A stretch of 64,000 bases of DNA from Nitrosopumilaceae archaeon (GTDB lineage Archaea > Thermoproteota > Nitrososphaeria > Nitrososphaerales > Nitrosopumilaceae): positions 480,001 to 544,000 of the forward strand of contig CBDBCR010000003.1 of assembly GCA_965203465.1 (NCBI GenBank), read 5' to 3'. This document shows, piece by piece, positions 22,796 to 41,110 of the stretch. Positions within the stretch are counted from its first letter, which is position 1; every line of letters starts with the position of its first letter. A program made the position numbers and the translations under genes. The notes under the pieces are model-generated. The model saw only the letters and a program-made list of their open reading frames with translations, did not search any database and had not been told where the DNA came from.

Positions 22796-25426
22796 TCAGG
22801 CGGCCCCGGGCTGCCCGCGGCGCGACAGCCGGCGGTACGCCAGAACGGCGGCGGCCGGCGAGCCCAGAAGCGAGGCGTTGAACATTATCACCAGCGAGCC
22901 GAGCATGACCGTCTGGGCCTCGGATTCTGCCAATTCCATGATTCCCAGCGACCAGAGCGCCGGCTGCAAGGACACCCGGACGGCCTCCTTGAAGGCCGGG
23001 CTGGACCTCTCGAGGTCGGCGACGGCCGGCGAGAACGCGTAATAGAACTGGTTGAAACCGGACACGAACGCAGAGCCGGCACCCGTCGAGAGCGCGCCGT
23101 CGCGGACTTCGCGCAGTTTCTGCACCTGCTCGGCCGTCTCGGTTCCGTACGCGGCAGTAGCTATGAGGCAGCCGCCGCCCTCGTCTGCCGGAACCGGCGT
23201 GCACGTCCCGTCGTCTGCGAGGAACGTGCCCGGCCCGCAGACCGGCTCCGCGTCTGGCTCGTCGGTGATCGGCTCCTGCGTGATCGGCGCTGCGGGCTCC
23301 GGCTCGGGTGCAGGCGGCGCCGGAGCCTCGGGCGGCTCGGCTGCCGGCGTCGCCGGCTCGGCGGGCGGCTCTGCCGGCGGCGCTGCGGCCGGCTCCGGTT
23401 CTTGGCGCTCGGCCTCTTGCCGCTCGGGCTCCTGCACCTCGAAGTGCTGCGAGGCCGCCCTCGGCTCGGGCACGTCGAAGGTCCTCGTCCCGGTGCAAGA
23501 GTCGATGTTTACCGATTCGGTGTCCGACGCTATGGTGCGGTTGGAGACGAGCGTGGCAGAGATCCTCGCGAACGACTCCGACGAGCCGAACGGCGCGGTG
23601 AATTCGCCGTACCCGCCGACTTCTCCGGACTGCGTCATGCGGACCACGCCGGCCACCGGCATGCGGAGCGTCACGTCCAGAGAGCCCGACGACGGGCCGG
23701 CGACCACCGTCACGGTGCCAGCCTCGCAGTCCCACGAGGCAGACCTGATATAGACCGCTTCTGTTCCCGCGCCCCCGTCCAGCGTCGTTCCCGAGACCCG
23801 GGCGCTGCCGCCCCCTCCTCCGCCGCCACCGCCTCCGCCGCTGGCTGCGGTTCTCTGCGGGGGCGCCGCGACATCGAGGGTCGCGCGCTCCGCAGGGGCG
23901 GCTGGCGGCGCGGTCTGCGTGGTGTACGAGACCTGCCACCTGCCGTCGATGTACCTGAGCGTCTCGTAGGCCGCAGAGGCCAAGTCGCCCCTGGCGTCGA
24001 GCTGCGCGCTGCCCATCAGCCCGCGGTGCCCGAGGGCCGCGGCGGGCACCGCGTCGCCCAAGCCGCCCTCTCCCGTCACCCTCGTGGAATCGGACAGCAC
24101 TATGGCCTTGCCCAGCACCTGCACCGAATCGTAGGCGGCGTACGCGCCAGAATAGACGCGCGCCTGCCGGTCAGTGATGCCGAGCCTGTCCTGTATCGCC
24201 TCCGTCACAGCTTGGAACGACGTGTGGCTTCGGTCGGGCGCGTCGTCTATGACCGTAAAGCGCTGCGTGACGAACTGCGAAACGCCGTCGTTTATGGTGG
24301 GCCAGAACTGCGATCCGAACCAGTCGAGCCCTGCAAGCCCGGCGTTGGCGGCAGCTGCCCCCACTATCAGGTCGCCGTCGTCCTGGTACGAAGCTAGCAG
24401 CACCACGGTCTTGCCCGAGACGGCGCTCGCGATGTCTGCCGTGACCGGCGTGCCGCTACCCAGCGCGGTTATGGCGGCGGGATCGTAGGCGACGGGGGCC
24501 ACGTTTATCCCGGGGGCGTTGCTCCGCACCGATTCCAAAAGCGACATGCCCCACGGGTCGCCTGCGCGGTGTGCCACCACGACGGTCTGCACGCCCTGCC
24601 CGGAGAGCCTGTCTATGAAGAACGCGCCCTGGTTCGCCGTGGGCGAGAGGAACCTGAATATGTTGTCTTCGAGGGCGAGCGCCGACGATACCGAGCAGCA
24701 GCTCAGCAGCATCATGCCGTTGTCGTCGGCGTACTGGCGCACGCCTGCCAGCTCCGAGGAGCTTATCGGCCCCAGCGCTATCTTCGTGCCCAGAGAGTTC
24801 ACGCTCTGAAGTTCGGAAAGGGCCGTCGCCGGCAGGGACGCGGTGTCGCGCGCGTCCAGATCTAGCCGCCACTTTGAGCCGGTGTCCGCAAACCTCGCGT
24901 TCAGATCCGCCACGCCCCGTACGAGCGCCGCCTCCACCGGGTCTCCCAGGCTGTCGAGCGAGCCGGTGCGCGAGACCAGGGCGCCCACCCGGACCGTCTC
25001 GATCTCGGCCGGGGCTGCCGGAGCCGCGACCGCCGTTATGCTCAGTTCCCGGAACACCCCCGCCTGCCCCGCGGCCGTCGGCGTCGCGTACAGGGACGGG
25101 CCGTAAGTCGCGCCGACCCGGGCGTCGGCCGGCACCGCCACGGTCATCTCCACGTCCAGCGTGCCGCCGGCCGGCATCTGCGCCCGCTGCGGCGACAGCT
25201 GCACGGACAGGCCGTCCCCGTCCCGCACTTCGAACGACGCGCCGGTGGCCACCGGCGAGGTGACGCGCAGCACCAGTACGCGCTGCTCGCCTGCCGGTAT
25301 TTCGATCTCTTGGTCGAACGAATAGACCGGATCGTAGCCGAGGCCGAACGCCTGCGGCGCCGCAGCGGCCGCCACGGCCGCGGCCAGCAGCGTCGCGGTC
25401 AGGAGCGTGCGGGGCATCTTATCCAC
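22796..25426 (-). CDS. Surface protein, 876 aa: signal peptide, Ig-like domain, LIV-BP-like solute-binding domain, Pro/Glu linker, CFI-box-CTERM anchor
   Basis: VGALVSRTG..G, AYAAYDSV, GDL; GGGCLIATAAYGTE..QVQKLREVRD..FNQFYYAFSP plus TM and basic tail. Confidence 0.88.
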   Translation of the reverse strand: MDKMPRTLLTATLLAAAVAAAAAPQAFGLGYDPVYSFDQEIEIPAGEQRVLVLRVTSPVATGASFEVRDGDGLSVQLSPQRAQMPAGGTLDVEMTVAVPADARVGATYGPSLYATPTAAGQAGVFRELSITAVAAPAAPAEIETVRVGALVSRTGSLDSLGDPVEAALVRGVADLNARFADTGSKWRLDLDARDTASLPATALSELQSVNSLGTKIALGPISSSELAGVRQYADDNGMMLLSCCSVSSALALEDNIFRFLSPTANQGAFFIDRLSGQGVQTVVVAHRAGDPWGMSLLESVRSNAPGINVAPVAYDPAAITALGSGTPVTADIASAVSGKTVVLLASYQDDGDLIVGAAAANAGLAGLDWFGSQFWPTINDGVSQFVTQRFTVIDDAPDRSHTSFQAVTEAIQDRLGITDRQARVYSGAYAAYDSVQVLGKAIVLSDSTRVTGEGGLGDAVPAAALGHRGLMGSAQLDARGDLASAAYETLRYIDGRWQVSYTTQTAPPAAPAERATLDVAAPPQRTAASGGGGGGGGGGGSARVSGTTLDGGAGTEAVYIRSASWDCEAGTVTVVAGPSSGSLDVTLRMPVAGVVRMTQSGEVGGYGEFTAPFGSSESFARISATLVSNRTIASDTESVNIDSCTGTRTFDVPEPRAASQHFEVQEPERQEAERQEPEPAAAPPAEPPAEPATPAAEPPEAPAPPAPEPEPAAPITQEPITDEPDAEPVCGPGTFLADDGTCTPVPADEGGGCLIATAAYGTETAEQVQKLREVRDGALSTGAGSAFVSGFNQFYYAFSPAVADLERSSPAFKEAVRVSLQPALWSLGIMELAESEAQTVMLGSLVIMFNASLLGSPAAAVLAYRRLSRRGQPGAA

Positions 25427-27089
25427 AACTTGCGAACAACGTCATCGCCTGCGAGAGGGAGCCTTCCCCGGTGGGCAGCACGCGGCCGGAGTGGACAACC
25501 TTGAACTCCAGCTCGGCGGTTCCGGGGGACGACAGTGGGGATCCGACATCGAGCGGCTGGCCGGGCACGAGATCTACGAATTCCCCGCCCACCTTTACCT
25601 GCGTGGTCAGCGTCCGGTATTCGTTGTCCGTCCGGTCGGTCCACGAGTCCACCTGCAGCCGCAGCCCGGCGACGGCCGCGGTACCGGCGTTGGTCACGGT
25701 CCGCGTGACCGCTGAGGACTCTCCGCCCGTCACCAGGTCGAATCCGAGCGCCTCGCCGGCCGAGACCGAGCAGGCAGGCTGCTGCGGCGTGATGCCGGAC
25801 TGCTGCCGCGAGATCTCGGCGGTGGCAGTCTGGGCCGCGTCGGTATAGTAGGGCGAATACGTCACGTCGCCGCTTATCCGTTCCGCTGGGCTCGCCCCCC
25901 AATAGTTGAACGGGGCGAACATGCGGCTAGGCGCCAGGTTGATCACGTCGAATCCGGTGTTCCCCGCGAACGAGTTCCTGAACGCGATCAGGGGGCTGTC
26001 CAGCGGCGCGTCCGACGTACGGAAGGCTCCAGAGTCTTCTCCGCTTCCGTCCGGCTGCCTGCAGGTCACCACGCACAAAAGTATTCCGTGGTGGCTGTCG
26101 CTTATGGTGTTGTCGTAGATGCGCGTGTTTACGAGGCCCTCTGCCCGCACTGTGATGGGGGCCCGCAGGGTGTACGACGTGGTTCTTTCGGCGTTGTCGG
26201 CCCCCGCCGTGTTTACGCCCGTGATCGTGTTGCCGTATATTTGAAGGCCCGCGTCGGGGCCCGACAGCTTGCGCTCGTTGGGCGTCCCCTCGTCGTGCGT
26301 GCGCTCTACCACCTTTTGGATCGCGGACGCAGGCATGTTGGACATGGCGTTGCCGTTTACGTGGCCGTTGATGACGCCGGACTTGCCCAGGTTGATTCCG
26401 GCGAACGTCGCGGTGTCAAAGACGTTGTCCGATATGAACAGATCCCGGAGCAGGCCCTGCTCGATCGTGCGGATGGCTGTGAACAGGCTGCCCGCCTTTT
26501 GCTCCTCGGTGAACCCGGGCGGATAGAACGTTCCTATGTTTCTGTACACGCTGTCGGTTATGCGCAGGTTGGTGATGGTGCTCTGCGCTACATCGCGTAT
26601 GACCGTGCCGTTGCCGCGGGTGTTGCTCATCGTGTTGTTTGACAGCGTGACGTTGGCCACATCCCCGCCCGCCAGCGTTCCCACCTCTAGAGCCGCCCAA
26701 GTCTGCGTGATCTCGTTGAACGTCAGGTTCTGGATAGTGATGTCGCTGCTAGAGGCCAGCATCCTGACCCATCCCGACAGCACGGCGCCCGGCTCGCCAG
26801 TCACCGTCATGGACTTGGTGAGGCTCAAAAGCCCCAAGTTGGCGTGCGTTCCCGAAGAAAACGTCACGACGCCCCCGCTGTCCAAGCCGCCGAATGCGGC
26901 CCGCACCTCGTCGGGGGTGTTGCTGGTGGTGATCGTCACGGCGCTCTGCGCGTACGCTACCGGAAACGCCGCGCAACCGGAGCACGGATCGCCGGCCGAC
27001 AGGGCGGCCGCAGAGGCCGCTGCAAGGATCAAAACCGCGGACGCGCTGAAAGGTTTTCGGGTGAACCCGCACGGGTTGCGCTTGAGCAC
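25419..27089 (-). CDS. Secreted parallel beta-helix protein, 556 aa
   Basis: GTG start, signal peptide ending AYA, repeated I.NN/GN.I beta-helix strands, NYWG motif; overlaps the next start. Confidence 0.8.
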   Translation of the reverse strand: MLKRNPCGFTRKPFSASAVLILAAASAAALSAGDPCSGCAAFPVAYAQSAVTITTSNTPDEVRAAFGGLDSGGVVTFSSGTHANLGLLSLTKSMTVTGEPGAVLSGWVRMLASSSDITIQNLTFNEITQTWAALEVGTLAGGDVANVTLSNNTMSNTRGNGTVIRDVAQSTITNLRITDSVYRNIGTFYPPGFTEEQKAGSLFTAIRTIEQGLLRDLFISDNVFDTATFAGINLGKSGVINGHVNGNAMSNMPASAIQKVVERTHDEGTPNERKLSGPDAGLQIYGNTITGVNTAGADNAERTTSYTLRAPITVRAEGLVNTRIYDNTISDSHHGILLCVVTCRQPDGSGEDSGAFRTSDAPLDSPLIAFRNSFAGNTGFDVINLAPSRMFAPFNYWGASPAERISGDVTYSPYYTDAAQTATAEISRQQSGITPQQPACSVSAGEALGFDLVTGGESSAVTRTVTNAGTAAVAGLRLQVDSWTDRTDNEYRTLTTQVKVGGEFVDLVPGQPLDVGSPLSSPGTAELEFKVVHSGRVLPTGEGSLSQAMTLFASCG

Positions 27090-27119
27090 CCCCCCCCCCC
27101 CCCGATGATAGTATAAAAA
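27089..27119 (-). promoter_or_regulatory. TATA box plus G15 homopolymer spacer ending in the GTG start
   Basis: Minus strand TTTTTATA-CTATCATC-G15-TG; C run 27089-27103 on + strand. Confidence 0.85.
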
Positions 27120-27142
27120 CTCAACTTTCCGGCTCGCGCGGC

Positions 27143-27195
27143 TCCCGATCCGGGGCGCCCCGCATCTCCGGGGCGCCCCGCCGGGATGGCGCGGA
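27143..27195 (+). repeat. Palindromic ~55-bp repeat, copy 2
   Basis: Two 12-bp palindromes CGGGGCGCCCCG (27151-27162, 27169-27180) separated by CATCTC. Confidence 0.75.
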
Positions 27196-27231
27196 CTTTT
27201 GAATAAATATGGGCCGCCGCGCGCGGCGGCG

Positions 27232-27579
27232 TTGACAGAATTCGTCCACGAGCCGTACAGGACCGTCCACGTGCGCGACGTCCTGAGGCTGTCGCTCGAC
27301 GACCTGATCAGCATGATATCGGCCCTCGAGCCGGTCAGCGCGTACTGGTGCGACGGCGTCCTCTTTGCCGTCTTTGCGGTGGCCGAATCGGACGAGCTTG
27401 CGAAAAAAGAGATCGCCGGCGAGACGTACGTCGACCGCATAGTCTTCGCAAAGCACCCCGAGTTCAGCCGGACCGTAAAGTCGTCGACCAACGTCGAGAT
27501 AGGCGTGGTCAACGTCTCGTGCAGCGGCACGTACTCGTCGATGGTCGCCTGGCTGAAGGGCCAGCCCGCGTGGGCCTAG
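27232..27579 (+). CDS. Conserved archaeal-type hypothetical protein
   Basis: TTG start 24 nt after ATAAAT; host-like codon usage. Confidence 0.75.
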   Translation: MTEFVHEPYRTVHVRDVLRLSLDDLISMISALEPVSAYWCDGVLFAVFAVAESDELAKKEIAGETYVDRIVFAKHPEFSRTVKSSTNVEIGVVNVSCSGTYSSMVAWLKGQPAWA

Positions 27580-28259
27580 CCGAGGCTGCGCTCGTACTGC
27601 TCTACGGACTCGCGGATCTTTTCGGCCGTCGCGATGCCGCCGCGCCTCATGCGCGCGAACATCTCCGGGTACACGAACTCCCTTTCAGAGTACTGTAGTA
27701 TCAGGTCGTACCTGCCCTCGAAATAGTGGAGCACCTCGTCTGCGCCCGACGTGGCCTTGGCCTCCAGCCCGTAGGCGCGCGCGAGCACGTCGTGCTTCAG
27801 GCCCTTGGCCGAGTACCCGTTGACCGGCAGGTGCAGCTGGAGCAGGTCCGCGACCGCCGGCTTCCTGACCATGTAGTGGTGCACCCACCTGGGCTCGTTG
27901 ACGGAGCTGGCCAGCATCCTCTGGTACAGGAACGGGATGTCGAACGAGAGCACGTTGTGCCCGACGATGTTGAGCCTGCCTCCGCGCTTCTGCAGGTCCG
28001 AGACGACCCCGTAGAGCTCTTGCAGCACGGCGCGCTCGCCGCGCTCCCACTCCTTGAGGCGCACCGGCGGGGCGCCGCCGGCCTGGTACGTCACGAGAGC
28101 GACGCGCCCGTCGAACGGCGAGAGGGCCCCCAGCTTGTACTTCCAGTACAGCGAGCCGTCGGCCTCGGTGAGCCCGCCCTCCCGCTCCCTCGCGCGCAGC
28201 TCTAGGTACTGCCCCGGCTCAAAGTCGGGCACCGTCTCGATGTCCAGGAAAAAGTCCAC
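27576..28259 (-). CDS. 3'-5' exonuclease, PolB-exo/RNase H-like (DEDD)
   Basis: FLDIETVP (ExoI), VGHNVLSFDIPFL (ExoII), ILQY..RE. Confidence 0.85.
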   Translation of the reverse strand: MDFFLDIETVPDFEPGQYLELRAREREGGLTEADGSLYWKYKLGALSPFDGRVALVTYQAGGAPPVRLKEWERGERAVLQELYGVVSDLQKRGGRLNIVGHNVLSFDIPFLYQRMLASSVNEPRWVHHYMVRKPAVADLLQLHLPVNGYSAKGLKHDVLARAYGLEAKATSGADEVLHYFEGRYDLILQYSEREFVYPEMFARMRRGGIATAEKIRESVEQYERSLG

Positions 28260-28319
28260 GCCCAAAGCCGGCGGCCCCGTATAAAAACAGAGGCCGGGCG
28301 CGCCGGCAGGCGCGCCCCA

Positions 28320-28394
28320 CGGGCCCGAAGGGATTCGAACCCCCGACCTAACGCTCCGCAAGCGTTCGCACTATCCATGCTATGCAACGAGCCC
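28320..28394 (-). tRNA. tRNA-Arg(GCG), no intron, CCA not encoded
   Basis: GGGCTCG acceptor stem, anticodon arm AACGC-TTGCGGA-GCGTT, GGGGGTTCGAATCCCTT T-arm. Confidence 0.95.
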
Positions 28395-28416
28395 GTGCGC
28401 GGCGGCCCCCCGTGCC

Positions 28417-29118
28417 TTAATTACTATTGGCCTTGGCCACGAAGATGTAGTACATGGCCAGCGCGGCGATTATGCCGCCGGCCAGCGGCGCGGCCCAGTA
28501 CATCCAGTGAAAGTCCCAGTACCCGGACAGGAGCGCGGGCCCGAACGTGCGCGCGGGGTTGACCGAGGCGCCGGTCAGCGGTATGGCCACCAGGTGTATC
28601 AGGAACACCATGCCGCCTATGGCGAAGCCGGCCCAGCCGGGGGCCGCCTTTTTGTGGACGGCGGTCATGAATATGACCGTGACCAGAAAGAACGTCAGTA
28701 TCGCCTCGACCGCGAAGCCGGACGCCGCCGAGCCCGACAGGATCTCGCTCGGGCCCGGCTGCGTGCCCAAGTTGACGCGCTCTGCCAGGTCGGGCAGGAT
28801 GGAGCGCAGCGCGGCCGCGGCCACGACCGCGCCCGCCAGCTGCGAGACTACGTACATCGCGCCGTCGCGCACCCCTATCTGCCTCGTGACCATCATCGGT
28901 ATGGTCACGGCGGGGTTGATGTGAGCGCCCGAGACGTGGCCGAACGCGTATATCATCAGGCCGACGGCGCCGCCGTGCGCCAGCGATATGAACAGCACCG
29001 AGATCGTCGAGAGATCCTCGCCGAACGAGGCGACGGCCACTATTATAGAGAGCACGCCGAAAAAGACGAGGGCGAACGTCGAGATCCCCTCGGCTACCCA
29101 CGCCCTCGGATTTGCCAT
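28417..29118 (-). CDS. Aquaporin (MIP family)
   Basis: SGAHINPAVT and GASVNPARTFGPA NPA boxes. Confidence 0.95.
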   Translation of the reverse strand: MANPRAWVAEGISTFALVFFGVLSIIVAVASFGEDLSTISVLFISLAHGGAVGLMIYAFGHVSGAHINPAVTIPMMVTRQIGVRDGAMYVVSQLAGAVVAAAALRSILPDLAERVNLGTQPGPSEILSGSAASGFAVEAILTFFLVTVIFMTAVHKKAAPGWAGFAIGGMVFLIHLVAIPLTGASVNPARTFGPALLSGYWDFHWMYWAAPLAGGIIAALAMYYIFVAKANSN

Positions 29119-29286
29119 CGGCGGCCGCGCCCCGAGGTGCCCATTTAAAACATGCGCCCGTTCCGCCGTACTTTCACGTCGCTGCCCGCCGGATCCACGT
29201 CCGAGCAGGCCGCCCCCTCCATGGAAGAAAGATCTATCTCCACGGCTCCGCACGGTTTCCGTTCCTGATAAGGCACTAAAGCCGGG

Positions 29287-32200
29287 CTAATTCTGCGCGT
29301 TTATGTTCCTGTGCCCGAACAGCTCCTCGAAGAGCAGCGCGGCCCGGTGCTGCTCTGCCAGTACCGCCTCGCGGAGGCGCCGCTCGTCGGCCTCCAGGTC
29401 GGGCAGCTGCGGGGCCGGCGCCGGCGCGTCCGGCTCCGGTGCCGGCATCATGGAATCGAGCACCTTTTGGGCGGCCATCACCTGCGCGTACAGGTGGTCG
29501 CGGAACTCCGGGTCGCCGCGGTCGTAGCCCTGCTTGGGGATGCCGTCGTAGATGTACATGGACTCGTCGATGTCGTGGTACAGCCGCGACTGGTTGTACA
29601 GCGGCAGGTACTCGCCTTCCGGCGAGAGCTTGAACAGGTGCCCGTCGCCGTCGACGAGCACGTCCTCGCCCGACGACACGCGGTACAGCAGCATCCCGTC
29701 CACCTCGATCCCCGGCTGCGGGTCCATCGGCTCGCCCGATACCCGTATGCCGTGGTTGTAGTAGTTTTGCCACGAGTTCCTCTCCCTGTCCCAGACGTCG
29801 GTCCCCACGATGTCGAACTCGAGCGGCGCCCGGAACGTGTGGGTTATGGTCACCGAGAGGCACTCGAGCGAAGATCCCGCCGAGCATTCCACCACGTCGT
29901 GCGAGGCGGACAGCGTGTCCAGGTCGATGGCGCCGTCCGGATCTATGACAGAGACGGTCCCGATGTCGTCGAACGAAATGTCGTAGTTTACGACCGCCCT
30001 GCTCTCCGATATGACCTCGCCGGAGCGCAGCCCGAAGGCCAGCGAGACGTGCTCTACGTTGCCCGGCCCCTGGTTTTCGTACATCTTTAGCACCACGGTG
30101 TTTTGCTTGCCGACTTCGGATTCGATCAGCGGGTACGGGGTGAAAAAGTACGCCACGTCGGACGACAGTCCGTTGTACGCAAAGCCGCCGTCGACGAGTT
30201 TGGCGCCGTACTCGTCGTAGCCGAGCGTCGGCGGGGTGCAGTCGTCGCACTCCGAGCCGCCGCTCGGCGGCAGCGCGGGCCCGGTCCCCCATGCCGAAAA
30301 GTGGCTGGTCCAGACAGTCGAGCTCTCCCGCACGTAGCACGAGCCCGCGTCGGTCCCGTCCTGCCCCTCGAGGGAGGCCAAGTGCCCGGCAGCCTCGGCG
30401 TGCGTCGAGGAGCCGGTCAGATCCTCGGGGCACTCTTGTACAGCGAGGGTCTGCCCGCCGGTCACCACGAAGACCAGCTCTTGGAGAGGCGTCGAAAACT
30501 CTATGCGTGCCGGCAGCGACAGCTCGACGCGCCCGGCCGGATCGCCCACCTCTATCAGGGTCGCCGACTGCGAGGTGTCCAGCCTGTACGAGAACGCGTA
30601 GTCGTCGGACGGCACGGTGGAACTGGTGGCCGACATTGGCAGCGTCTGATCCGCGGGCAACCCGCCTACCTGCAGGCCGGCGGGCAGCACCACGGTGGCA
30701 GAGGCGAACATGACGGTCAGCCCGGAGCTGAACTCGGCGGTCTGCCCTCCGGCCGAGGCCACGCTGGCGGCCGGCGAGGCCGGATCGGGCAGCAGCGAGG
30801 CGTCGATGGCCACCGGCTGCCGGGCCACGACGGTGCTTACGATCGAGTCGGGCGGCAGCACCAGCTCCGTGCGACCGTCCCTGGCCGTGTCGCGCAATAC
30901 GACCGCCCCGTCGCGCGCGTCCGCCGGGACCAGCGACTTTGCGCCGCCGTTGAGCAGCGCGTTGCCCACCCTGTCGGTGACCCCGGAGACTTGGAAGTCG
31001 ATGCGGGTGCTGGACATCAGCTCGGCGTCGCTCTGGGCCAGCATGGCGAGTACAGAGGCGGTGCCCGAGCCGTGCACGAAAGAGGCTGCCGGCACCGAAG
31101 AGGCGCCGTACTCGAAGAGCGTATAGTCCGCAGCCGCGGTCACCACCGGCTCGGAGTAAAAGAGCGCTACGGAGCGCTGGCCGACAAGCGATATCTGATC
31201 TAGCTGCGGGGCCGTGTTGTCCACCAGGACGTTGGGGCCGGTCAGCCTCTCCTCTCCGAAGGTGACTGGCACCCCGTCGATCATCACCTCTATGCTGATG
31301 TCCAGCGGGCCGTCGGGGTCGGTCCCGCAGGCGGCCCACTCTGCGGCGAACTGCTTGGCCGGCGGGGTCGTCTCTTCGACCGAGCTTTCCGGGTTGGGGA
31401 GCGGGGGCTGCAGGGACGCGCTCCTGCCGTTTATCAGTACGTCGAACTCGCCCATGGTGAACGTCTCTTCGGCCCGGAACGAAATGTCCACCAAGGTCCT
31501 GGGCCTGTCCCCCTCCGGGACGCACACGCCCTCCCCGGATGTCAGGACGCGCTGGCCGCCCTGCAGCACCAGGGTGCCGGTCGGCTCGTAAGAGTCCCCG
31601 CCCGTGGCCATGCCCGAGGGGTGGCGCGAAGTCACCGTGAACTCCGTGACGGTCAGCGGCACCTCGTACTTTGGTATCGGTACGGCCTGCCCGCCGCGCA
31701 CCTGCAAGAGCTGGAACTCGGTGCCGGCCAAGTCCCCGTTGATATCGAGCGTGGTGTCCCCTATCAGGCCCGCGTGCCCGCGCGCGGCCGCCGGGATGTT
31801 TTCCAGCAGGGCAGAGGCGGCCGCCGAGTCGCCGAGCAGCACCGCCCTGCCCATCAGGTGGACCGAATCGTAGGCGGCGTACGTATAGATGCCAAAGTCG
31901 CGGTGCCCGTCGGGCAGCCTGGCAGATATCTCGCGCGTGACGCGATCGAACTGCGGGTGGTCGCGGTCGAACACGGCGTCCACGCTCGTGTACCGAACCT
32001 GCGAGGCAAAGTCGCGCACCTGGTCCGTGTGGGACAGTATGGTGTCCAGTATCGACGTGCCGAACCACTGCGAGGTGCCCAGCGCGGCCGCCCCCGGCGG
32101 GGCGCCCGGCGCGGACGAGGCCGCGTCGGCGGCGGCCATTATTTCGACCGTGTCGGTGCTGAAATCGAACAAGAGGACGGCCGAGTCCGAGGCCACGTGC

Positions 32201-35200
32201 GTGGCGGACATCTGCGATACGAGCGCCGCCGAATCGAGCGGGGCCCCGTCGGTCGACGAGACGAACGGCACCAGCGCCGTGGTGTAGCCCGAGCCCAGAT
32301 CGAATCTTGACTTTACGGATTCGGCCAGGCCTCTCCCCCACGCGTCGTCCCTGTACGCTATGGTGGCGTGCTTTATGCCCGCGTTGAGCAGCTGCTCCGC
32401 GATGAACGGGCCCATGAGCGTGTCGGGCGGTATCAGCCTGAATATGCCGTCCTGCTTTGCCAGCGAGGCGGCAGTCGAGCCGTAGCTGAGGACGGTCACG
32501 CCGTTGGCCGCCGCATAGTCCTGCACGCGCGTCACGCCGCCCGACGTGGCCGGGCCGATTACCGCCTTTATGCCCGCCGAGTTTAGGTCGCTCAGCCGCG
32601 CCAGCGCCGTGTCCGGCTCGGCCCGCGAATCGCGTATGTCCAGCGAGACGCGCCAGTCCGAGTCGGTCTGCTCGAGGCGCTCGTTGAGGTCTTTCACCCC
32701 GACCTGCATGGCGGCTTCCCAGTGCTCGCCGAGCGACGAGACCGGGCCGGTCAGCGGCACGAGCGCGCCGATCGTGACCGTGTGCAAGTCGCCAAGGCCC
32801 GCCGTCTCCGTAAGGTCCAGGACGGTCAGCCCGCCGCGCGTGTTGTTCAGGCCGGTCACCGCCGCGTTGGACGAGGCGACGGCCGCGTACAGCCGCCCGT
32901 CGACGGTCCTGAGCGAGACGCCCAGCGGGTCGTCCAGGCCGACGCGCTCGCCGGCCGGATCGTTGTGGCCGTCGCGCGCGTACGCGAGGCGCTGCGGCGA
33001 CGCGGGATCCGTGACGTCTATCAGAAACAGCCCGTCGGGCTGATCGACCGTGGCGGCCAGCACGGTGCGCCCGCCGGCCTCGGACACGTCGATCCGCTCT
33101 ATGCTGTCGAAGGACGCCAGCGGGTGGCCGTCCAGGTACGGGCCGATGACGCCGGCCGAGCGGGGCGCGGACGGATCCTTCAGGTTCACTATCTGGATGA
33201 ATTCGCCGCTGTATTCGTCAGGGTCGTCGCTGGCCACTATGGCCGCGTGCGGCACGCCGCCCAGCTCGAATGCGAGCACCTGCCCGGGCGAGTAGATGTC
33301 GCCGAACGCGCGCCCGTCCCTGTCCAGCAGGCCCGGCGTTATGGAGGCCGCGCGCTTTGGATTCGCAGGATCCGAAAGATCCAGTATCTGGACGGAGCCC
33401 TCGCCGTCGTTGCCGTAATACCAGTCGTCCAAGGAAGATACCACCGCGTACGTCGAGCCGCCGGACTCGAAGGTGTCTATGCCGACCGGGTTGTACAGCG
33501 AATCGAAGAGGCGGCCGTCGGCGTCCCTCTCGCCGGCCACGGCGAACGATATCTGCCGGATGGCGGCCGGATTTGAAATGTCCAGTATCGTCACGGCGCC
33601 CTGGTACTGGCTGTAGGTTCCGCCGTACTGCGAGGCGAACGCGACGTAGGTCTTGCCGCCGGTCTCAAAGACGGCCAGGTCCGAGATTGTCAGCAGCGCG
33701 TCGATGTTGGTGGCCCAGGCGCCGTTGTTGACCGAGTACCCGCTGTTGGGGTTGCCCGGATCCGTAATGTCCACCATCTGGAACCCGCCCACCTGGTACG
33801 GGGCGCCCGGCGAGACCGCGACGGCGTACGTGCGGTCGCCTATCTTGACTATCTCTACGGCGTCGGTCCCGTCCAGCTCGGCCAGCCGGCGCAGCGGGTC
33901 GGCGGCAAGGTCGGTCGTCGGCGTGATGCAGTGCAGCTGCTGCCCGGTGTACTGGTTGGGATCGGCGCAGCCGTACATCGGCGAGCGGCCGTCGGCCATG
34001 TACGAGACAGAGCGCGGAGAGTACGGATCCGAAATGTCCACTATCTGCAGGCCGTTGTCGTCCGCCGATGCCACCACGGCGAACGTGCCGGCAGAGCCGC
34101 GCAGGCTGACCGTTTCTGCCGGCGCCTCCGGCGAGCCGATCCTGCCGGACAGGTGAGCCTGCTCGGTGGCCGGATCGTAGCGCACGGTACTCCACGTGCC
34201 CGAATACAGGGTGCGCGCCAGCTCTTCCCCGTCCACGGTGTACACGTCCACGTCGGCCGCGCCGCCCAGGCTGTGGTAGTGCGTTATAGACGGTATGTTG
34301 AAGACGTACCCCGGATCGAAGTTTTTGACGGTCCTGTACGGATCGCCGGGCGATACCGGGCGGCCGGACGCCTGCCCGTCCGTTATCGCCGAGGCGAGCA
34401 CCGCGGCCGTGTCCACGGGCGCGTACGCAGAGCGCGCCGAGATCTGCACGGACTGGGCGGCCACGGCGCGATCGTGAAAGTCCTGCACGTCTCCGGGCGC
34501 GTACGACAGCGACTGGCCCGACATGACCGGGTCGCGGAACGTGATGTACGCCGAGATCACCGCGGTCGGATCCAGGTATTCGGTGGTCCAGCTGGCAGGC
34601 ACCGGCCACAGCAGGGCGGGCCAGTCGGGGCGCGGCGGGGGCGGTATGTCCTGGGTTATCACGCGCTCCTGGGGCACCCGCACGGATATAGCTCCGCTGC
34701 CGCCGGCCGACCATGCCTCGGCCGAGCCGGCGCCGGTCATGGGCATGTTGAAGTATATCCGCACGGTGTGCGGCGAGACCGACTCTGCGGACATTATGGC
34801 GGGCAGCACCGACGGGTCGGGCGTGTCGGCTATTTCCAGCGCGACCGGATCGACGCTCAAGTCGGACAGGTCCTCCACGGCGCTCCGCTCGAAGCGCAGG
34901 TGCGGGGCCGCGTACACTGCGCCGGCCTGCGCGAGCGTCTCTGAAAGCTGTACCGTGATGCGGGCGTCCGAATCTCCCGACGACGTAATCTGCGAGCCGG
35001 TCAGCGCGGTGCCTCCCGTCGTAAAGGAGCCGTCGGCCATGAAGATCTTTGCCAGATCGGCAGAATCCTTGACCCACTCGTCGAAGGTAAGCGTCAGCAC
35101 CCCCGAGGCCTCGTCCAGCTCTGCGGAGGAGACCGACGGCCGCACGGCGTCGGGCGTGTCCGCGATTTCGGCCGTCGCGGCGGCCACGGGCACGTCCGAA

Positions 35201-38200
35201 AGGTCCCGCACCGCGCCCGCGTCCAAGCGCACGTACGGCGTCGTATAGCCGATGGCCGACTGCCGCAGGGCCTCGCTCAAGTCCACGGTTATCTCCTTGT
35301 CCGTGTCTTCGGACGTCACCGAAGAGCCGGTCAGCGCGGCGCCGCCGGATCCGGGCCCGTCGCGGATGAAGATCCTCGAGAGGTCGACGCCGGCGCCGTC
35401 CTTTACGTCCTCGTTGAACGTCAGGGTCAATATTCCGGTGCCCTCGTCGAGGGCCGGCCTGTCGTTGCCCGTAGCCACTAGCGCCGGGGCGTTGGTGTCC
35501 AGTATCTGGGAGATGTCGGTGCCGGCCGCGTTGGCCGCTATGTCGTTGAGGGCCGTGTCTTCTATGGCGCCGGCCGCGATGTACAGGTAGGGATCCGACA
35601 AGGCTATGGCGCCCAGCCTGCTGTCCGGGCTCAGCTCGAACTCGAAGGTCAGGCCGTCGGACTGGCCGGACTTTCTCTCCGCGTTGGACAGCGTGACCTC
35701 GCCGGCGGAGCCGTCGGCCGCGCTGGCGCCCTCGCGCAGCTCAAAGCCCGCGCCGTTTACGCGCGCCGGATCCACGTCCACGTCCTCGTTGAACGTTATG
35801 GTGAGCAGGCCGGTCTCCTCGTTGAGGGCAGCAGAAGAGACCACCGGCGGTATGCTGTCGTATACTTTGGTGATCGCCGTGCTGGTGGCCGAGGCGGCCA
35901 GGGTCTGGTTTGAAAGATCCACCACGGCGCCCGAGGTAAAGTACAGGTGTGGCACGTACGCCTGGGCGGCCACGGCGGCCCTGAGCGTCTCGGATACGGT
36001 TATCTCGATCTCCGGGTCGGTGTCGTCGGTGGAAGACACGCTAAAGCCGGTGCCGGTCAGCGCCGTGCCGCCGGAGGTGCCCGAGCCGTCGCGGATGAAG
36101 ACTTTGGTCAGATCCACGGTGCCGTCGTTTACCGATTCGTTGAACACGATGGTCAGCCTCCCGGTGGGCACGTGGAACACGGGCGCGGTGGTGGAGCTGA
36201 GCTGCGGGGCCGCGGTGTCGGCTGTGTCCGTGATTTCGGCGCTGGCCGAGGCGGCTACGTCCTGGTTCGAAAAGTCCTTCACGGCGCCTTGTGCGAGGCG
36301 CACGTGCGGCGTCGCGTAGCCGATGGCGGCCTTGCGCTGCGCCTCGGTAAGATCCACCGTCACGGTCGCGCCGTTGCCCGTCGAGGTGACCGTCGCGCCG
36401 GTCAGGGGCTCGCCGCCGGAGGTGAACGAGCCGTCGTTTATGAGGATCTTCGACTGGTCGACGTCCGAATCCGACGCCTTTACGGTCTCGTCGAAGGTCA
36501 GCGTCAGTATTCCGGTCTCTTCGTTGAGCGCGGGCCCGTTCTGCCCCGTGGCCACGAGCCGCGGGGCGGTCGTGTCTGGCGTGTCCGTTATTTCGGCGAC
36601 GGCGGCGGCGACGTTCTGGTCGGAGAGATCCTTCACCGCTCCGGCATCTAGGCGCACGTACGGCGCCGTGTAGCCGATGGCCGTCTGCCGGAGCGCCTCT
36701 GTCAGTTCCACGGTGATCTCGGCGTCCGTATCGGCAGTCGAGGTCACCGTCGAGCCGGTCAGCGCGGTGCCGGCGGGGGAGGCGAACGAGCCGTCGTTTA
36801 TGAAGATCTTGGCCAAGTCGACGTTGGCGCCCTCCTTTACCGATTCGCTGAACGTGAGAGTCAGCACGCCGGTGGCCTCGTCGAGGGCCGGCGCGTTCTG
36901 TCCCGACGCCACGAGCGTCGGCGCGGTGGTGTCCGCGGTATCCGAGATGGAGGCGCCGGCCGCGAGGGCCGCGATGCCGACGGACGACGTGTCGGTGATG
37001 GCGCCGGCCGCGACGTACAGGTAGGGGTTGCTCAGCGCTATGGCGTCCCTCCTGCTGTCCTCGTCGAGCTCGAACTTTAGCGTCAGGCCGTCGTTCTGGC
37101 TGGCCTGTATCTCCGCGTTGGACAGGACGACATTGCCCGCTTGGTTGCTGGGCGCGCTTGCGTTGTTGCGTATTTCGAAGCTGGCGCCGTTGCTGCTCGC
37201 GCTCGACACGTCGACGGTCTCGCTGAACGTTATCGTGAGCAGGCCGGTCTCCTCGTTGAGGGCCGCGGACGAGACCGTCGGCGGATCGTTGTCGGGCGTC
37301 TGCGAGATGGCGGTGCCGGCCGTCTTTGCGGCTATTCCGTTGGGTCCAACGTTGCTGTTGGCCAGGCTGATCGCGTCGTTTATGGCGCCGGCCGCGACGT
37401 ACAGGTGGGGATTCGACAGGGCGATGACGGCCTGCCGGCTGTCCTCGTCCAGATCGAAGACGAACGTGAGACCGTCGGACTGGCTCGCCCGTATCTCCGA
37501 ATTCGACAGGGTGACCTCGCCGGGAGAGCCGTCCGCGGCGTTGGCGTTGTTGCGTATTTCGAAGCTGGCGCCGCTGCTGCTCGCGCTGGACACGTCGACG
37601 GTCTCGTCGAACGTGATCGTCAGTATCCCGGTGCCCTCGTCGATGGCCGCCGTCAAGACCTGCGGCGCGGCCGTGTCGAAGACCTGTGAAACGTCGGTGC
37701 CTTCCGCCTTTGCGGCTATGCCGTTGGCCGCCGTGTCGTCTATGGCGCCTGCCGCCACGTACAGGTACGGATCGCTCAAGGCTATGGCGGCCTGGCGGCT
37801 GTCCTCGTCGAGTTCGAATTCGAAGGTGGCGCCGTCGGTCTGGCCGGCCTTTATCTCGCCGGCGGACAGCGTGACCTCGCCGGTGGAGCCGAGGGCCGCC
37901 GGCGTGCTCTCGCGCAGGTAAAAGGCGGCGCCGTTGGCGCCGGACACGTCCACGTACTCGTCGAACGTGATCGCGAGCGGGCCGTCGAGCCCCTCGTTCA
38001 GCGACACCGCGGTCACCACGGGTCCGGTGGTATCGGCCGTCGCGGCGGGCACCTCCGTTACGCCCGAGGAAGCTACGGGGGTGGCGCCGCCCGACTGCGC
38101 GAACGCGCCGTGATCAACCAGTATCGCCAGGTCCGCCATGCCCTTGATTGTCTCTTTCTGCTCAGGGCTCAGGCCTATCGTGACCGTGTTGGAACTGATG

Positions 38201-39267
38201 GAGACGGAGGCGCCGGAGCCCAGCGTGATGTTGGACGAGCCGTCGCGCGTCTGCACGGTTATCCTCGAGAGCGCGTCCGTGTTGCTAGTGCGCGCCTGCA
38301 CGTCCTCGGTAAAGTAAATCACGATCTTGCCCGCGCTACGGTCGCCTGCGCTGCCCTCGAAGTTGTTCAGGTCGACGGCCGCCGACTTGAACGCGGCGCT
38401 GGATATGACGGCCGTCGACGAGGTGGTCGCCAGCAGCGCGTTGTCCGACAGATCCTTTATCGCCCCCGCGCCAAAGTACAGGTGGGGGGTAGAGTATCCG
38501 GCGATCCTGTCGTAGTCGGTCTGGCTCAGCAATATAGAGACGTAGGGATCCGTATCGACGGTGGACGTCACGGTGGAGAGCGACAGGTTGCCGGTCGCCG
38601 AGGGCGTCGAGCCCGAAGTGTAGGTGCCGTCGCTGACGAATACCTGCGCCAAGTCGACGTCGGCCCCCTCCTTTACCGATTCGCTGAACGTCATGGTCAG
38701 TATCTTGGCGCCGTCGTCGATGACGGACTGTCCGGGTATGGTCGGGGCATTGGTGTCGTCGATGGTGGTGAAAGTTCGGCCCTGGTTGTTAGCGGACCAG
38801 CCGCTCCACATTCCGTGGCCATTAGCCTGACGGAACGTGTCTTCTTTGGGAGACGCGTACCCGCTAAAAGTGACCGGCAGCATCGCTTTGCGCTGGGCCT
38901 CGGTAAGCTGTATAAGTATGGGACCAAAACCGGTGCCCGAAGAGACCACCTCGGCGCCCGCCAGATTGACTGATAGCGTTACTCCATAAGTTGCCCCAAA
39001 ATCTGTTGTGCCGAGCCATATGTTTTCCTGCTTTACGTCCGCATCGCCGAGTCTTGACTCAGTGATAAGTTGGAGGGTGAGCAATCCGGTCTCTTTGTTG
39101 AGAGTGGCGTGGCTTAGCCCCACGTTTCCGGCGTGAGTCGCGTCGGCCTCTTGGTGGGGCAGCGCCGCCAAGAGCGGCGCCAGCGCCAAGAGAGGCAAGA
39201 GCGCCAAGACCGCGAACTTTGCCGTTTTTTCGCCCGCAATGCGCCCCGATCCTAGCCGCGCCAACAT
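29287..39267 (-). CDS. Giant surface protein, 3326 aa: signal peptide, ~12 Ig-like repeats, LVIVD-like beta-propeller, LIV-BP-like domain, thaumarchaeal C-terminal domain
   Basis: Repeats AALNEETGLLTITF.E.V; LQIVDISDP/VTILDISNP/LFLIDVTDP blades; IGALVPLTG..YAAYDSV; CDDCTPPTLG..GGFAYNG. Confidence 0.9.
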   Translation of the reverse strand: MLARLGSGRIAGEKTAKFAVLALLPLLALAPLLAALPHQEADATHAGNVGLSHATLNKETGLLTLQLITESRLGDADVKQENIWLGTTDFGATYGVTLSVNLAGAEVVSSGTGFGPILIQLTEAQRKAMLPVTFSGYASPKEDTFRQANGHGMWSGWSANNQGRTFTTIDDTNAPTIPGQSVIDDGAKILTMTFSESVKEGADVDLAQVFVSDGTYTSGSTPSATGNLSLSTVTSTVDTDPYVSILLSQTDYDRIAGYSTPHLYFGAGAIKDLSDNALLATTSSTAVISSAAFKSAAVDLNNFEGSAGDRSAGKIVIYFTEDVQARTSNTDALSRITVQTRDGSSNITLGSGASVSISSNTVTIGLSPEQKETIKGMADLAILVDHGAFAQSGGATPVASSGVTEVPAATADTTGPVVTAVSLNEGLDGPLAITFDEYVDVSGANGAAFYLRESTPAALGSTGEVTLSAGEIKAGQTDGATFEFELDEDSRQAAIALSDPYLYVAAGAIDDTAANGIAAKAEGTDVSQVFDTAAPQVLTAAIDEGTGILTITFDETVDVSSASSSGASFEIRNNANAADGSPGEVTLSNSEIRASQSDGLTFVFDLDEDSRQAVIALSNPHLYVAAGAINDAISLANSNVGPNGIAAKTAGTAISQTPDNDPPTVSSAALNEETGLLTITFSETVDVSSASSNGASFEIRNNASAPSNQAGNVVLSNAEIQASQNDGLTLKFELDEDSRRDAIALSNPYLYVAAGAITDTSSVGIAALAAGASISDTADTTAPTLVASGQNAPALDEATGVLTLTFSESVKEGANVDLAKIFINDGSFASPAGTALTGSTVTSTADTDAEITVELTEALRQTAIGYTAPYVRLDAGAVKDLSDQNVAAAVAEITDTPDTTAPRLVATGQNGPALNEETGILTLTFDETVKASDSDVDQSKILINDGSFTSGGEPLTGATVTSTGNGATVTVDLTEAQRKAAIGYATPHVRLAQGAVKDFSNQDVAASASAEITDTADTAAPQLSSTTAPVFHVPTGRLTIVFNESVNDGTVDLTKVFIRDGSGTSGGTALTGTGFSVSSTDDTDPEIEITVSETLRAAVAAQAYVPHLYFTSGAVVDLSNQTLAASATSTAITKVYDSIPPVVSSAALNEETGLLTITFNEDVDVDPARVNGAGFELREGASAADGSAGEVTLSNAERKSGQSDGLTFEFELSPDSRLGAIALSDPYLYIAAGAIEDTALNDIAANAAGTDISQILDTNAPALVATGNDRPALDEGTGILTLTFNEDVKDGAGVDLSRIFIRDGPGSGGAALTGSSVTSEDTDKEITVDLSEALRQSAIGYTTPYVRLDAGAVRDLSDVPVAAATAEIADTPDAVRPSVSSAELDEASGVLTLTFDEWVKDSADLAKIFMADGSFTTGGTALTGSQITSSGDSDARITVQLSETLAQAGAVYAAPHLRFERSAVEDLSDLSVDPVALEIADTPDPSVLPAIMSAESVSPHTVRIYFNMPMTGAGSAEAWSAGGSGAISVRVPQERVITQDIPPPPRPDWPALLWPVPASWTTEYLDPTAVISAYITFRDPVMSGQSLSYAPGDVQDFHDRAVAAQSVQISARSAYAPVDTAAVLASAITDGQASGRPVSPGDPYRTVKNFDPGYVFNIPSITHYHSLGGAADVDVYTVDGEELARTLYSGTWSTVRYDPATEQAHLSGRIGSPEAPAETVSLRGSAGTFAVVASADDNGLQIVDISDPYSPRSVSYMADGRSPMYGCADPNQYTGQQLHCITPTTDLAADPLRRLAELDGTDAVEIVKIGDRTYAVAVSPGAPYQVGGFQMVDITDPGNPNSGYSVNNGAWATNIDALLTISDLAVFETGGKTYVAFASQYGGTYSQYQGAVTILDISNPAAIRQISFAVAGERDADGRLFDSLYNPVGIDTFESGGSTYAVVSSLDDWYYGNDGEGSVQILDLSDPANPKRAASITPGLLDRDGRAFGDIYSPGQVLAFELGGVPHAAIVASDDPDEYSGEFIQIVNLKDPSAPRSAGVIGPYLDGHPLASFDSIERIDVSEAGGRTVLAATVDQPDGLFLIDVTDPASPQRLAYARDGHNDPAGERVGLDDPLGVSLRTVDGRLYAAVASSNAAVTGLNNTRGGLTVLDLTETAGLGDLHTVTIGALVPLTGPVSSLGEHWEAAMQVGVKDLNERLEQTDSDWRVSLDIRDSRAEPDTALARLSDLNSAGIKAVIGPATSGGVTRVQDYAAANGVTVLSYGSTAASLAKQDGIFRLIPPDTLMGPFIAEQLLNAGIKHATIAYRDDAWGRGLAESVKSRFDLGSGYTTALVPFVSSTDGAPLDSAALVSQMSATHVASDSAVLLFDFSTDTVEIMAAADAASSAPGAPPGAAALGTSQWFGTSILDTILSHTDQVRDFASQVRYTSVDAVFDRDHPQFDRVTREISARLPDGHRDFGIYTYAAYDSVHLMGRAVLLGDSAAASALLENIPAAARGHAGLIGDTTLDINGDLAGTEFQLLQVRGGQAVPIPKYEVPLTVTEFTVTSRHPSGMATGGDSYEPTGTLVLQGGQRVLTSGEGVCVPEGDRPRTLVDISFRAEETFTMGEFDVLINGRSASLQPPLPNPESSVEETTPPAKQFAAEWAACGTDPDGPLDISIEVMIDGVPVTFGEERLTGPNVLVDNTAPQLDQISLVGQRSVALFYSEPVVTAAADYTLFEYGASSVPAASFVHGSGTASVLAMLAQSDAELMSSTRIDFQVSGVTDRVGNALLNGGAKSLVPADARDGAVVLRDTARDGRTELVLPPDSIVSTVVARQPVAIDASLLPDPASPAASVASAGGQTAEFSSGLTVMFASATVVLPAGLQVGGLPADQTLPMSATSSTVPSDDYAFSYRLDTSQSATLIEVGDPAGRVELSLPARIEFSTPLQELVFVVTGGQTLAVQECPEDLTGSSTHAEAAGHLASLEGQDGTDAGSCYVRESSTVWTSHFSAWGTGPALPPSGGSECDDCTPPTLGYDEYGAKLVDGGFAYNGLSSDVAYFFTPYPLIESEVGKQNTVVLKMYENQGPGNVEHVSLAFGLRSGEVISESRAVVNYDISFDDIGTVSVIDPDGAIDLDTLSASHDVVECSAGSSLECLSVTITHTFRAPLEFDIVGTDVWDRERNSWQNYYNHGIRVSGEPMDPQPGIEVDGMLLYRVSSGEDVLVDGDGHLFKLSPEGEYLPLYNQSRLYHDIDESMYIYDGIPKQGYDRGDPEFRDHLYAQVMAAQKVLDSMMPAPEPDAPAPAPQLPDLEADERRLREAVLAEQHRAALLFEELFGHRNINAQN

Positions 39268-39297
39268 GCCGCCCCCCCCCCCCCCCGTGTAATAAAG
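39267..39297 (-). promoter_or_regulatory. TATA box plus G15 homopolymer spacer before ATG
   Basis: Minus strand CTTTATTA-CAC-G15-CGGC-ATG; C run 39272-39286 on + strand. Confidence 0.85.
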
Positions 39298-39908
39298 CCA
39301 ACGGATCAGCGCCGCGCGTTTCAGGCACGCCCGGGGCGGCGCCGGCGACCGCCGCGGGGCCGCCGGGCGGGGGAGGGCGGGCCGGTTTCGCGCGGTCCGG
39401 GCCGATACCGCGCGTCCCCGGCGCCCCGGCCGCGGCGCAACGCCGCATCTGCCGGCCGGGGGTTTTTCGATCCCGCGGGCGGGTGGATCAAAACGGCCGG
39501 GCAAAAGCCGGACGGCCGAAGGATCGCAGCCGGCGGATCTCGGATCGCGCGCCCCGGGCGGGAAGGCGCGATCCCGGGCCGCCGCCCGCACGGCGGGGAA
39601 AGGCGCGCAAGGCCGGGGCGGGCCGCAGTCCCGGCTGCGGGGCAGGCGCGCCCGGCGGGGGCGGACAAGGCCGGCGAGTCAGGGCGGCGTCGAGCGCGCG
39701 GGACGACTCGGGCGAGGCCGGCCGGAAACGCCCGGCGCGCGGCTTGCAGTCTTTGGAACAATCAACCTCGGAACAAGCACCGGATCTGGCGGTTCGTGCC
39801 GCGGCGCGCGCGAATCTGATCTGGAGATCATGCGTATGCTGCGGATCCAAGAACCGCGCGGGCCCGCGGCCGGCTTCCGGCCCGCTCTCGAACAGGCAGG
39901 AACCCGGA

Positions 39909-40975: not shown

Positions 40976-41110
40976 CGCCGACCCGCCCAGCCGGGCGCGG
41001 TCCTGCTCGAACCGGAGCACGACGCCCTTGATCACAGCACGCCGCCCCGCCCTGCGCTAGCCGTCGTCGACGGCCTCGCGCAGGAAGCATGCAGCATACG
41101 TCGGCTGTGC

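Follow-up and report, generated by a model that had tools for sequence, protein, structure and literature searches.

The stretch analysed here, called the window throughout, is 64,000 nt long (C3:480001-544000) and belongs to a 2.26 Mb genome in four contigs, with 65% GC and an estimated completeness of 96.9%. The window carries two runs of 15 G residues (G15) on the minus, coding strand, each set in the spacer that separates a TATA box from the start codon of a gene for a secreted protein, P0001 at site 1 and P0002 at site 2. We give an even chance to the reading that both runs are slippage-prone contingency tracts, whose changes in length would alter where transcription begins with respect to a leaderless start codon. 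As far as sequence can tell, a slippage switch appears well supported by the position of the tracts, their enrichment at one class of genes, their recurrence in relatives and the set of genes that accompanies them, and the promoter geometry seems consistent with a mechanism in which the TATA box serves as a ruler for a leaderless start. The genome encodes a thermosome and a single Orc1/Cdc6 as archaeal markers; the 80 closest named matches of the thermosome belong almost without exception to Nitrosopumilaceae, Nitrosopumilus or relatives, and the public runs holding the stretch are labelled sponge metagenome, marine metagenome or coded organisms. The organism is a sponge-associated archaeon of the ammonia-oxidiser family Nitrosopumilaceae.

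Two G15 tracts in the promoters of secreted-protein genes

A preliminary description of the window had named two G15 runs on the coding strand, at 27089-27103 and 39272-39286, as its only long homopolymers. A count of all homopolymers of at least 9 nt returned these two, which read as C15 on the plus strand, and no others. A search for G10 gave 12 overlapping matches, all within these two runs, against a shuffle expectation of 0.61, and 0 of 100 shuffles reached 12. The same description had placed each run in the gap separating a TATA box from the start codon of a gene for a secreted protein, and this was borne out at both sites. Tract lengths in public runs were compared on Logan contigs of four runs (X1, X10, X12 and X13), two of which (X12 and X13) were without cover at either tract. 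The features of the two sites are as follows.

27112..27119, minus strand: TATA box of site 1, TTTTTATA, with the hexamer TTTATA at 27117-27112; 28 nt from its first T to the GTG start
27089..27103, minus strand: G15 tract of site 1; the GTG start begins on the final G of the tract (27089), and an X10 contig spans the tract unchanged
25419..27089, minus strand: gene for P0001, a 556-aa secreted protein with a weak right-handed beta-helix match and six paralogues in the genome
39290..39296, minus strand: TATA box of site 2, TTTATTA; 29 nt from its first T to the ATG start
39272..39286, minus strand: G15 tract of site 2; unchanged in an X10 contig, lacking 3 of the 15 in an X1 contig
29287..39267, minus strand: gene for P0002, a 3326-aa secreted protein with repeated modules of ~100 aa, an LVIVD repeat and a Leu/Ile/Val-binding-protein-type domain at residues 2163-2524

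Read along the minus strand, site 1 consists of TTTATA, 8 nt, G15 and TG, so that the GTG start codon is made of the final G of the tract and the following TG. Site 2 consists of TTTATTA, CAC, G15, CGGC and ATG (39267-39265). Both proteins begin with a charged stretch followed by a hydrophobic stretch; hydrophobic N-termini, here and elsewhere in the genome, were judged by eye and with a hydropathy window. A paralogue of P0001 at C3:277247 shares the flanks of site 1 from the TATA box to the coding region, carries G11 in place of G15, and has a stop codon 8 nt upstream of the tract, which fixes GTG as the P0001 start. At site 2, the open frame upstream of the ATG has a negative codon score (1359 with the upstream part and 1377 without it).

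A pattern search of a collection of genome contigs for relatives of P0001 gave 51 matches, none of them a relative, and a search for a relative with a solved structure found none. P0001 had no match outside its own genome among 40 related genomes, and therefore no orthologous promoter was at hand for comparison. The N-terminus of P0002 gave 181 pattern matches in a single scan of metagenome contigs, none of them a relative. A protein search with the open frame across site 2, made for variants of the glycine run, returned one distant match (62% identity over 28% of the query).

In the strain of run X1, similarity to the window of at least 90% ends at 27087, 2 nt from the gene-side edge of the site-1 tract, and 1060 unlike letters follow. 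In that strain the promoter side is conserved, unlike the surface-protein gene.

Distance from TATA box to start codon

Distances were measured from the first T of TTTAWA to the start codon, using all in-frame candidate starts of all called genes. Genes were called with a crude codon-score caller (1693 ORFs), and gene counts given here are approximate. The box-to-start distance peaked at 29-30 nt, and 121 of 291 pairs fell at 27-32 nt, that is, in 6 of 55 distance bins. On sequence grounds the peak is the signature expected of leaderless genes, and the leaderless geometry that the preliminary description had ascribed to several genes thus extends to the genome. Sites 1 and 2, at 28 and 29 nt, lie near this mode. 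The same description had put the spacing from the hexamer to the start at 23 and 24 nt. Our recount gives 22 and 23 nt, and the match to leaderless-type genes noted there holds within 1 nt. The distances at the tract-bearing loci of this type are listed below.

Site 1: 28 nt
Site 2: 29 nt
C2:113230: 29-30 nt
C3:442058: 28 nt
C4:5436: 28-30 nt
C3:277247: 25 nt
C1:1025001: 29 nt (by eye)

At these seven loci the spacer before the tract varies from 2 to 13 nt and the tract from 11 to 15 nt; the sum is conserved and its parts are not. The spacers of 99 ordinary promoters of the same box-start type are also GC-rich, with a longest G run of at most 6.

Tracts across the genome and the genes they precede

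In the whole genome, G runs and C runs become scarcer with length until 10 of each remain at 8 nt, after which a second mode appears, comprising 49 tracts of 10-18 nt plus three G9 runs. Tract length peaks at 12-13 nt, and 10 of the 49 tracts are 15 nt or longer. By the bimodal length histogram and the shuffles, the repeats are much longer than base composition predicts.

Random placement of poly-G runs relative to gene class had been named beforehand as a result that would count against a switch, together with a genome scan to look for it. In that scan the placement proved strongly non-random. Of the nine ORFs of at least 3000 aa, eight had a coding-strand G run of at least 9 nt in their 5′ zone, as had 7 of the 19 of 1500-3000 aa; the corresponding counts were 5 of 81 for ORFs of 800-1500 aa, 7 of 399 for 400-800 aa and 9 of 1185 for smaller ones. 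Taken together, 15 of 28 ORFs of at least 1500 aa have a 5′ tract versus 21 of 1665 smaller ORFs (Fisher p = 9e-20). No C run was found in the 5′ zone of ORFs of at least 1500 aa.

At 21 loci (22 tracts), the tract either falls within the opening codons of an ORF of 428-9069 aa or precedes it by no more than ~80 nt; 20 of these ORFs have a hydrophobic N-terminus. By eye, the tract flanks represent at least ten unlike contexts, so shared descent from one promoter cannot explain the pattern. At least three layouts were distinguished. In two of them the tract lies in the spacer downstream of the TATA box, either leading to the start itself or with a short leader in between; in the third it lies within the first codons, as a frameshift tract. 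The switch originally suggested at two surface loci is thus supported as to tract position and gene class, and its two tracts belong to a set of ~50 in the genome.

The two ORFs with the largest tract-bearing genes after that of 9069 aa (7439 aa at C1:648377 and 6134 aa at C3:421842) have no TATA-like box nearby. At both, a short ATG-started frame crosses the tract and stops at a TAG 3 nt before the TTG of the giant ORF, in phase at the assembled lengths by eye; this may be a coupling arrangement.

Tracts in first codons and at other sites

Restriction-modification genes accompany the surface-protein genes among the targets, and many such targets occur in the one genome. An N6/N4 DNA methylase gene has its tract 13 nt after the ATG, and a second N6/N4 methylase gene is split at its tract; further tracts neighbour DndB, a ParB_N protein and an rve-integrase element. 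The class with the tract in the first codons comprises C1:337285, C3:752279, C3:833922, C3:223043, C3:326667, C1:1010391, C1:348613 and C1:966321, and its members are the two N6/N4 methylases, DndB, three giant secreted proteins and two 832-aa ORFs. The ATG lies 9-33 nt upstream of the tract (130 nt at C3:752279), and the frame into the long ORF is open for one length class only. The first methylase, the long form of DndB and the two 832-aa ORFs are out of frame with the upstream ATG by 1-2 bases and have their long frames open. Likewise, the upstream ATG is one base out of frame at the giant secreted proteins of 1361 and 2438 aa, whose long frames are kept, and the 2440-aa giant protein is in frame at the assembled tract length. 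By analogy, a phase-variable gene set would be expected to show such a mixture of frame states, some in frame and some out; the consensus length of the tracts may be off by one.

Tracts were also seen at three other kinds of site. An IS66-family element in four copies (C1:313680, C1:689437, C1:812532 and C3:87241) carries a G12-13 tract ~140 nt ahead of the transposase gene; the tract is on the strand opposite to that gene and 11 nt from the apparent element end. A gene for an Eco57I/MmeI-type methylase (1284 aa) is followed by one for a PLD-SNF2 helicase (1119 aa) at C1:57900-65400, with a second copy near C1:361748, and G16 or G9 stands at the junction, at the 3′ end of the methylase gene. 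This may be a defence-system-like pair under tract control. At C3:610379, C15 lies in frame within a 971-aa ORF with a nucleotidyltransferase domain, where it encodes prolines, and any slip not a multiple of three would cause a frameshift.

Variation in tract length and mismatch repair genes

Invariant tract length across strains had also been named as a finding that would speak against a switch. Between a pair of strains and between paralogues, length was seen to differ in like flanks, the direct evidence for instability being thin. At site 2, one contig of run X1, from another study and a divergent strain, has G12 versus G15 here, along with 48 other differences in 732 aligned bases. The P0001 paralogue at C3:277247 has G11 versus G15 at site 1 in like flanks, and the four IS66 ends have G12 or G13. 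In relatives, tandem units with identical 42-nt flanks have G13, G22 and G12 in one case and G11 and G15 in another. The G15 lengths are not peculiar to one assembly, because Logan contigs of X10, probably the source sample, reproduce both. X10 contigs break at site 1, which gives a weak hint of length instability.

MutS_V and MutL domains were not found in the genome (96.9% complete), which contains one NucS_C-type domain within a 496-aa frame. NucS acts on base mismatches and is not known to act on indel loops.

Tracts in related genomes

All four further genomes of the genus contained tracts of G11 or longer. A first sample outside the genus showed them in 5 of the 20 remaining genera of the family, and none of 16 further families of the order had any. 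When sampling was widened to 401 genomes of the family, three of them marked unpublished (G221, G094 and G243), 124 had at least one tract; 32 had ten or more (counted from the table), and three had ~170, many of them in non-genic tandem units.

The layout at gene starts recurs in several of these relatives. Six tracts fetched from G005 precede secreted paralogues of more than 1000 aa. A record named 'Cenarchaeum sp.' contains the same promoter eight times with near-identical flanks, tracts of G10, G11 (four), G12 and G13 and one interrupted, and distances of 28-32 nt. A record named 'Nitrosopumilus sp.' has at least four loci with G13-14 before large secreted proteins. The order TATA box, G run and start was found at one locus in G019 and one in G105 (L329, distance 30).

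Genomes with ten or more tracts are mostly larger (1.9-3.9 Mb) than is typical of the family (1.1-1.8 Mb).

A model for the G15 tracts

In archaea, the TATA-binding protein (TBP) and transcription factor B (TFB) determine where transcription begins, at a constant distance from the TATA box. In the model, the set of ~50 tracts would be kept mainly before genes for giant secreted proteins and for DNA modification or defence. In both genes of the window the tract would fill the spacer, placing the start codon at the expected transcription start and giving a leaderless mRNA. Since TBP and TFB fix the start relative to the box, gain or loss of G residues at replication would move the start codon with respect to the mRNA's 5′ end. 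With a shorter tract, transcription would start inside the ORF, and the start codon and signal peptide would be lost; with a longer one, a G leader would be added. Either way, output of the surface protein would change heritably and reversibly, the tract standing between TATA box and start codon, where a change of length would alter expression. If this is true, a single slipped base alters the 5′ end of the transcript and its translatability together. In this model the slippage rate, the position of the start site and the effect on expression are inferred.

A broader proposal, which we hold more tentatively and judge to fall somewhat short of an even chance, is that sponge-associated ammonia-oxidising archaea have a multi-gene phasome, in which ~50 replication-oriented poly-G tracts would stochastically switch giant surface proteins and DNA-modification or defence genes. 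In its promoter class, TBP and TFB would act as a ruler against a leaderless start codon, an arrangement with no bacterial counterpart.

Several observations weigh against a length-dependent promoter switch or narrow its reach. For about half of the tracts at surface genes, no TATA-like box lies within 30 nt. At three or four more loci the tract is placed as at the window sites but the start codon is 38-44 nt away from the box, after a GGTG motif, which would give these loci a short leader. The leaderless ruler can thus apply to ~7 loci only, both window sites among them. Even at site 2, loss of 3 nt need not switch P0002 off, because the TTG of codon 2 would come to lie at distance 29 from the box. 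In G016 the tracts lie upstream of the TATA box, and in G003, of the same genus, most of the 39 tracts are not beside a long ORF. The strict pattern TTTATA-N2-10-G10 occurred at 1 locus in five tract-rich relatives, three of them with ~170 tracts each, a count that is weak either way because the pattern is too narrow for their TATA variants (as at L329). The near absence of the strict layout in tract-rich relatives suggests that many tracts of the clade exist without this promoter role. The public runs were compared as contigs, and hypermutability within a population is something we infer; no RNA run was among the public runs holding the stretch. Because the consensus of long reads can miscount long homopolymers, assembled tract lengths, and hence ON and OFF states, are uncertain by one base. 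Finally, a strand-biased mutational process helps to create or keep the tracts, as described next.

Replication-arm orientation and alternative explanations

In the closed chromosome of G003, tracts lie on the minus strand at 182-636 kb, on the plus strand at 924-2202 kb and again on the minus strand at 2600-3100 kb, the orientation switching at the single orc1/cdc6 (901 kb); 38 of the 39 tracts fit an orientation set by the replication arm. The same rule holds for 11 of 14 tracts in G016 and 7 of 8 in G005. In the present genome, C1 has 19 G tracts to 1 C tract and C3 has 1 to 23, with gene strands nearly balanced by comparison (412/398 and 306/400). The rule includes tracts away from gene starts and in IS66 ends, and eight tracts that break the placement of G on the sense strand keep it nonetheless. 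As orientation follows the replication arm and not the gene, a lineage-wide mutational bias contributes to the tracts. The arm rule is a separate clue to how poly-G tracts arise.

This bias bears most directly on the explanation that the tracts are a by-product of mutation. In a lineage without indel mismatch repair, G runs past ~9 nt would undergo strand-biased expansion and persist wherever they are tolerated, with little or no regulation at both genes. The apparent lack of MutS and MutL agrees with this, as do the presence of tracts in nearly a third of the family sample, with some genomes reaching ~170, and the many tracts in non-genic tandem units. The arm bias strengthens this explanation but leaves the gene-class enrichment and the conserved distance unexplained. 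Tolerance alone cannot account for 15 of the 28 largest ORFs versus 21 of 1665 smaller ones, nor for the constant sum of spacer, tract and leader in unlike flanks (25-30 nt here and 28-32 nt in the eight 'Cenarchaeum sp.' promoters), nor for long open frames of methylase and giant-protein genes that are interrupted at the tract. We regard a mere by-product as unlikely.

Another possibility, and an improbable one in our judgement, is that the G run acts through structure or the chemistry of initiation, as a G-quadruplex on the non-template strand, through reiterative, GTP-sensing slippage of RNA polymerase, or as a G-rich 5′ end bound by a factor or a small RNA. G was on the sense strand at every promoter-class locus seen, in this genome, in the eight-copy family and at the 'Nitrosopumilus sp.' loci listed, and G15 is the shortest run able to fold a three-layer quadruplex. 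In Helicobacter pylori, a small RNA is described as targeting a variable G repeat in an mRNA leader (PMC8295292). Most tracts are, however, too short for such folding (10 of 49 reach 15 nt), the sense-strand rule is inseparable from the replication-arm rule, and the intragenic frameshift tracts of the same genome work by length.

It is very improbable that the two window tracts are coding, with translation starting upstream, G15 read as five glycines and an ordinary frameshift switch as the result. The frame is open upstream through the tract for 147 and 108 codons at the two genes, and frameshift tracts are used elsewhere in the genome. An upstream start codon was nevertheless rejected for both genes: the codon score is negative upstream of site 2, the site-1 paralogue has its stop 8 nt before the tract, a TATA box lies 28-29 nt before each proposed start with signal-peptide-like N-termini beginning exactly at these starts, and small indels are numerous upstream of site 2 in the X1 strain, as would be expected of non-coding DNA.

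An artefact of assembly or sequencing, which the proneness of long homopolymers to error and the many poly-G runs at contig ends of short-read assemblies among the matches listed might suggest, has next to no likelihood and was rejected, as both tracts are internal and reproduced in independent Logan contigs, site 2 is present at another length in a run of another study, and similar tracts occur in closed genomes of several genera.

Other features around the two sites

Two further features adjoin site 1.

22796..25426, minus strand: 876-aa ORF with an ANF_receptor / ligand-binding domain, overlapping the P0001 stop by 8 nt
27213..27230, minus strand: GC-rich hairpin with a T-rich stretch after it, ahead of the site-1 promoter (consensus scan only)

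The 876-aa ORF is probably co-transcribed with P0001. The hairpin probably terminates the preceding transcript, and site 1 would therefore have its own promoter. An Rfam scan of 24000-42000 found one tRNA gene alone (28320-28394, minus strand, 53.5 bits), which overlaps the 5′ end of a listed ORF (27576-28361) and at which contig depth in run X13 is very high, as expected for a conserved tRNA. Domains of the Leu/Ile/Val-binding-protein type (ANF_receptor / Peripla_BP_6) occur in the window in genes at 15629-16753, 22796-25426 and 29287-39267, being embedded in P0002 and in the 876-aa protein, and a branched-chain amino-acid permease gene lies near the proteins that carry them.

Comparison with known systems

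Bacterial pathogens and commensals are well known to hedge their bets through phase variation driven by slipping repeats. The preliminary description knew of no archaeal precedent, and none was found: a full-text literature search, with subscription journals and supplements outside its range, gave no description of repeat-mediated phase variation in archaea, and no paper on leaderless transcripts or start sites in Nitrosopumilus was found in the literature searched. In the relevant part of a 2025 review, the archaeal distribution of phase variation is still future work (PMC11868660), and archaeal phase variation is absent from the passages of a 2026 methylation review that bear on the subject (PMC13076061). 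A 2010 survey of 18 archaeal genomes describes homopolymers of up to 10 bases in coding genes, mostly poly-A/T (PMC2831843). One genome here supplies dozens of candidate archaeal contingency loci. By analogy, their targets (giant surface proteins, methylases and DndB) suggest selective pressures shared with bacteria, from host and virus.

The poly-G phasome of Campylobacter jejuni and Helicobacter (PMC6321876, PMC539331) resembles the present set in having dozens of poly-G/C tracts in a small genome, in surface and restriction-modification targets, in mixed frame states and in an apparent lack of MutS/MutL-type repair. The Campylobacter and Helicobacter tracts are mostly 8-13 nt long and inside ORFs, whereas those of the present genome are 10-18 nt long, about half of them upstream of an ORF and nearly all oriented by replication arm. 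The targets differ as well, being giant secreted proteins of up to ~9000 aa in a sponge-associated ammonia oxidiser.

Poly-G in a signal-peptide coding region is known from Neisseria genes of the pilC type, and phase-variable mod methylases form phasevarions. The latter have been reviewed (PMC11868660). The class with tracts in the first codons (two methylases, DndB and three giant secreted proteins) is like these; the two window tracts, which lie upstream of the start, are not.

The closest counterparts of the window tracts are homopolymers in promoter spacers, such as the C-stretch of fim2 and fim3 in Bordetella pertussis and the poly-G of porA and poly-C of opc in Neisseria meningitidis. 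A poly-A of this kind is described for nspA (PMC6389960). As in the fim and porA type, a slippage-prone homopolymer lies in the core promoter of a surface gene, and its length would set the spacing of two fixed points and hence output, so that the tracts may work like these bacterial switches. They are not members of that group, because no sigma-70-like site was found at site 1 in a consensus scan and the host is an archaeon, in line with the earlier view that -35/-10 spacing is not involved. The fixed points in bacteria are the -35 and -10 hexamers read by a sigma factor, whereas here they would be a TATA box read by TBP and TFB and a putative leaderless start codon, and the geometry of transcription would be coupled to the start of translation. 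The tracts thus offer a candidate mechanism specific to archaeal transcription and leaderless translation, and they would make the question of archaeal contingency loci testable in existing sponge holobiont samples.

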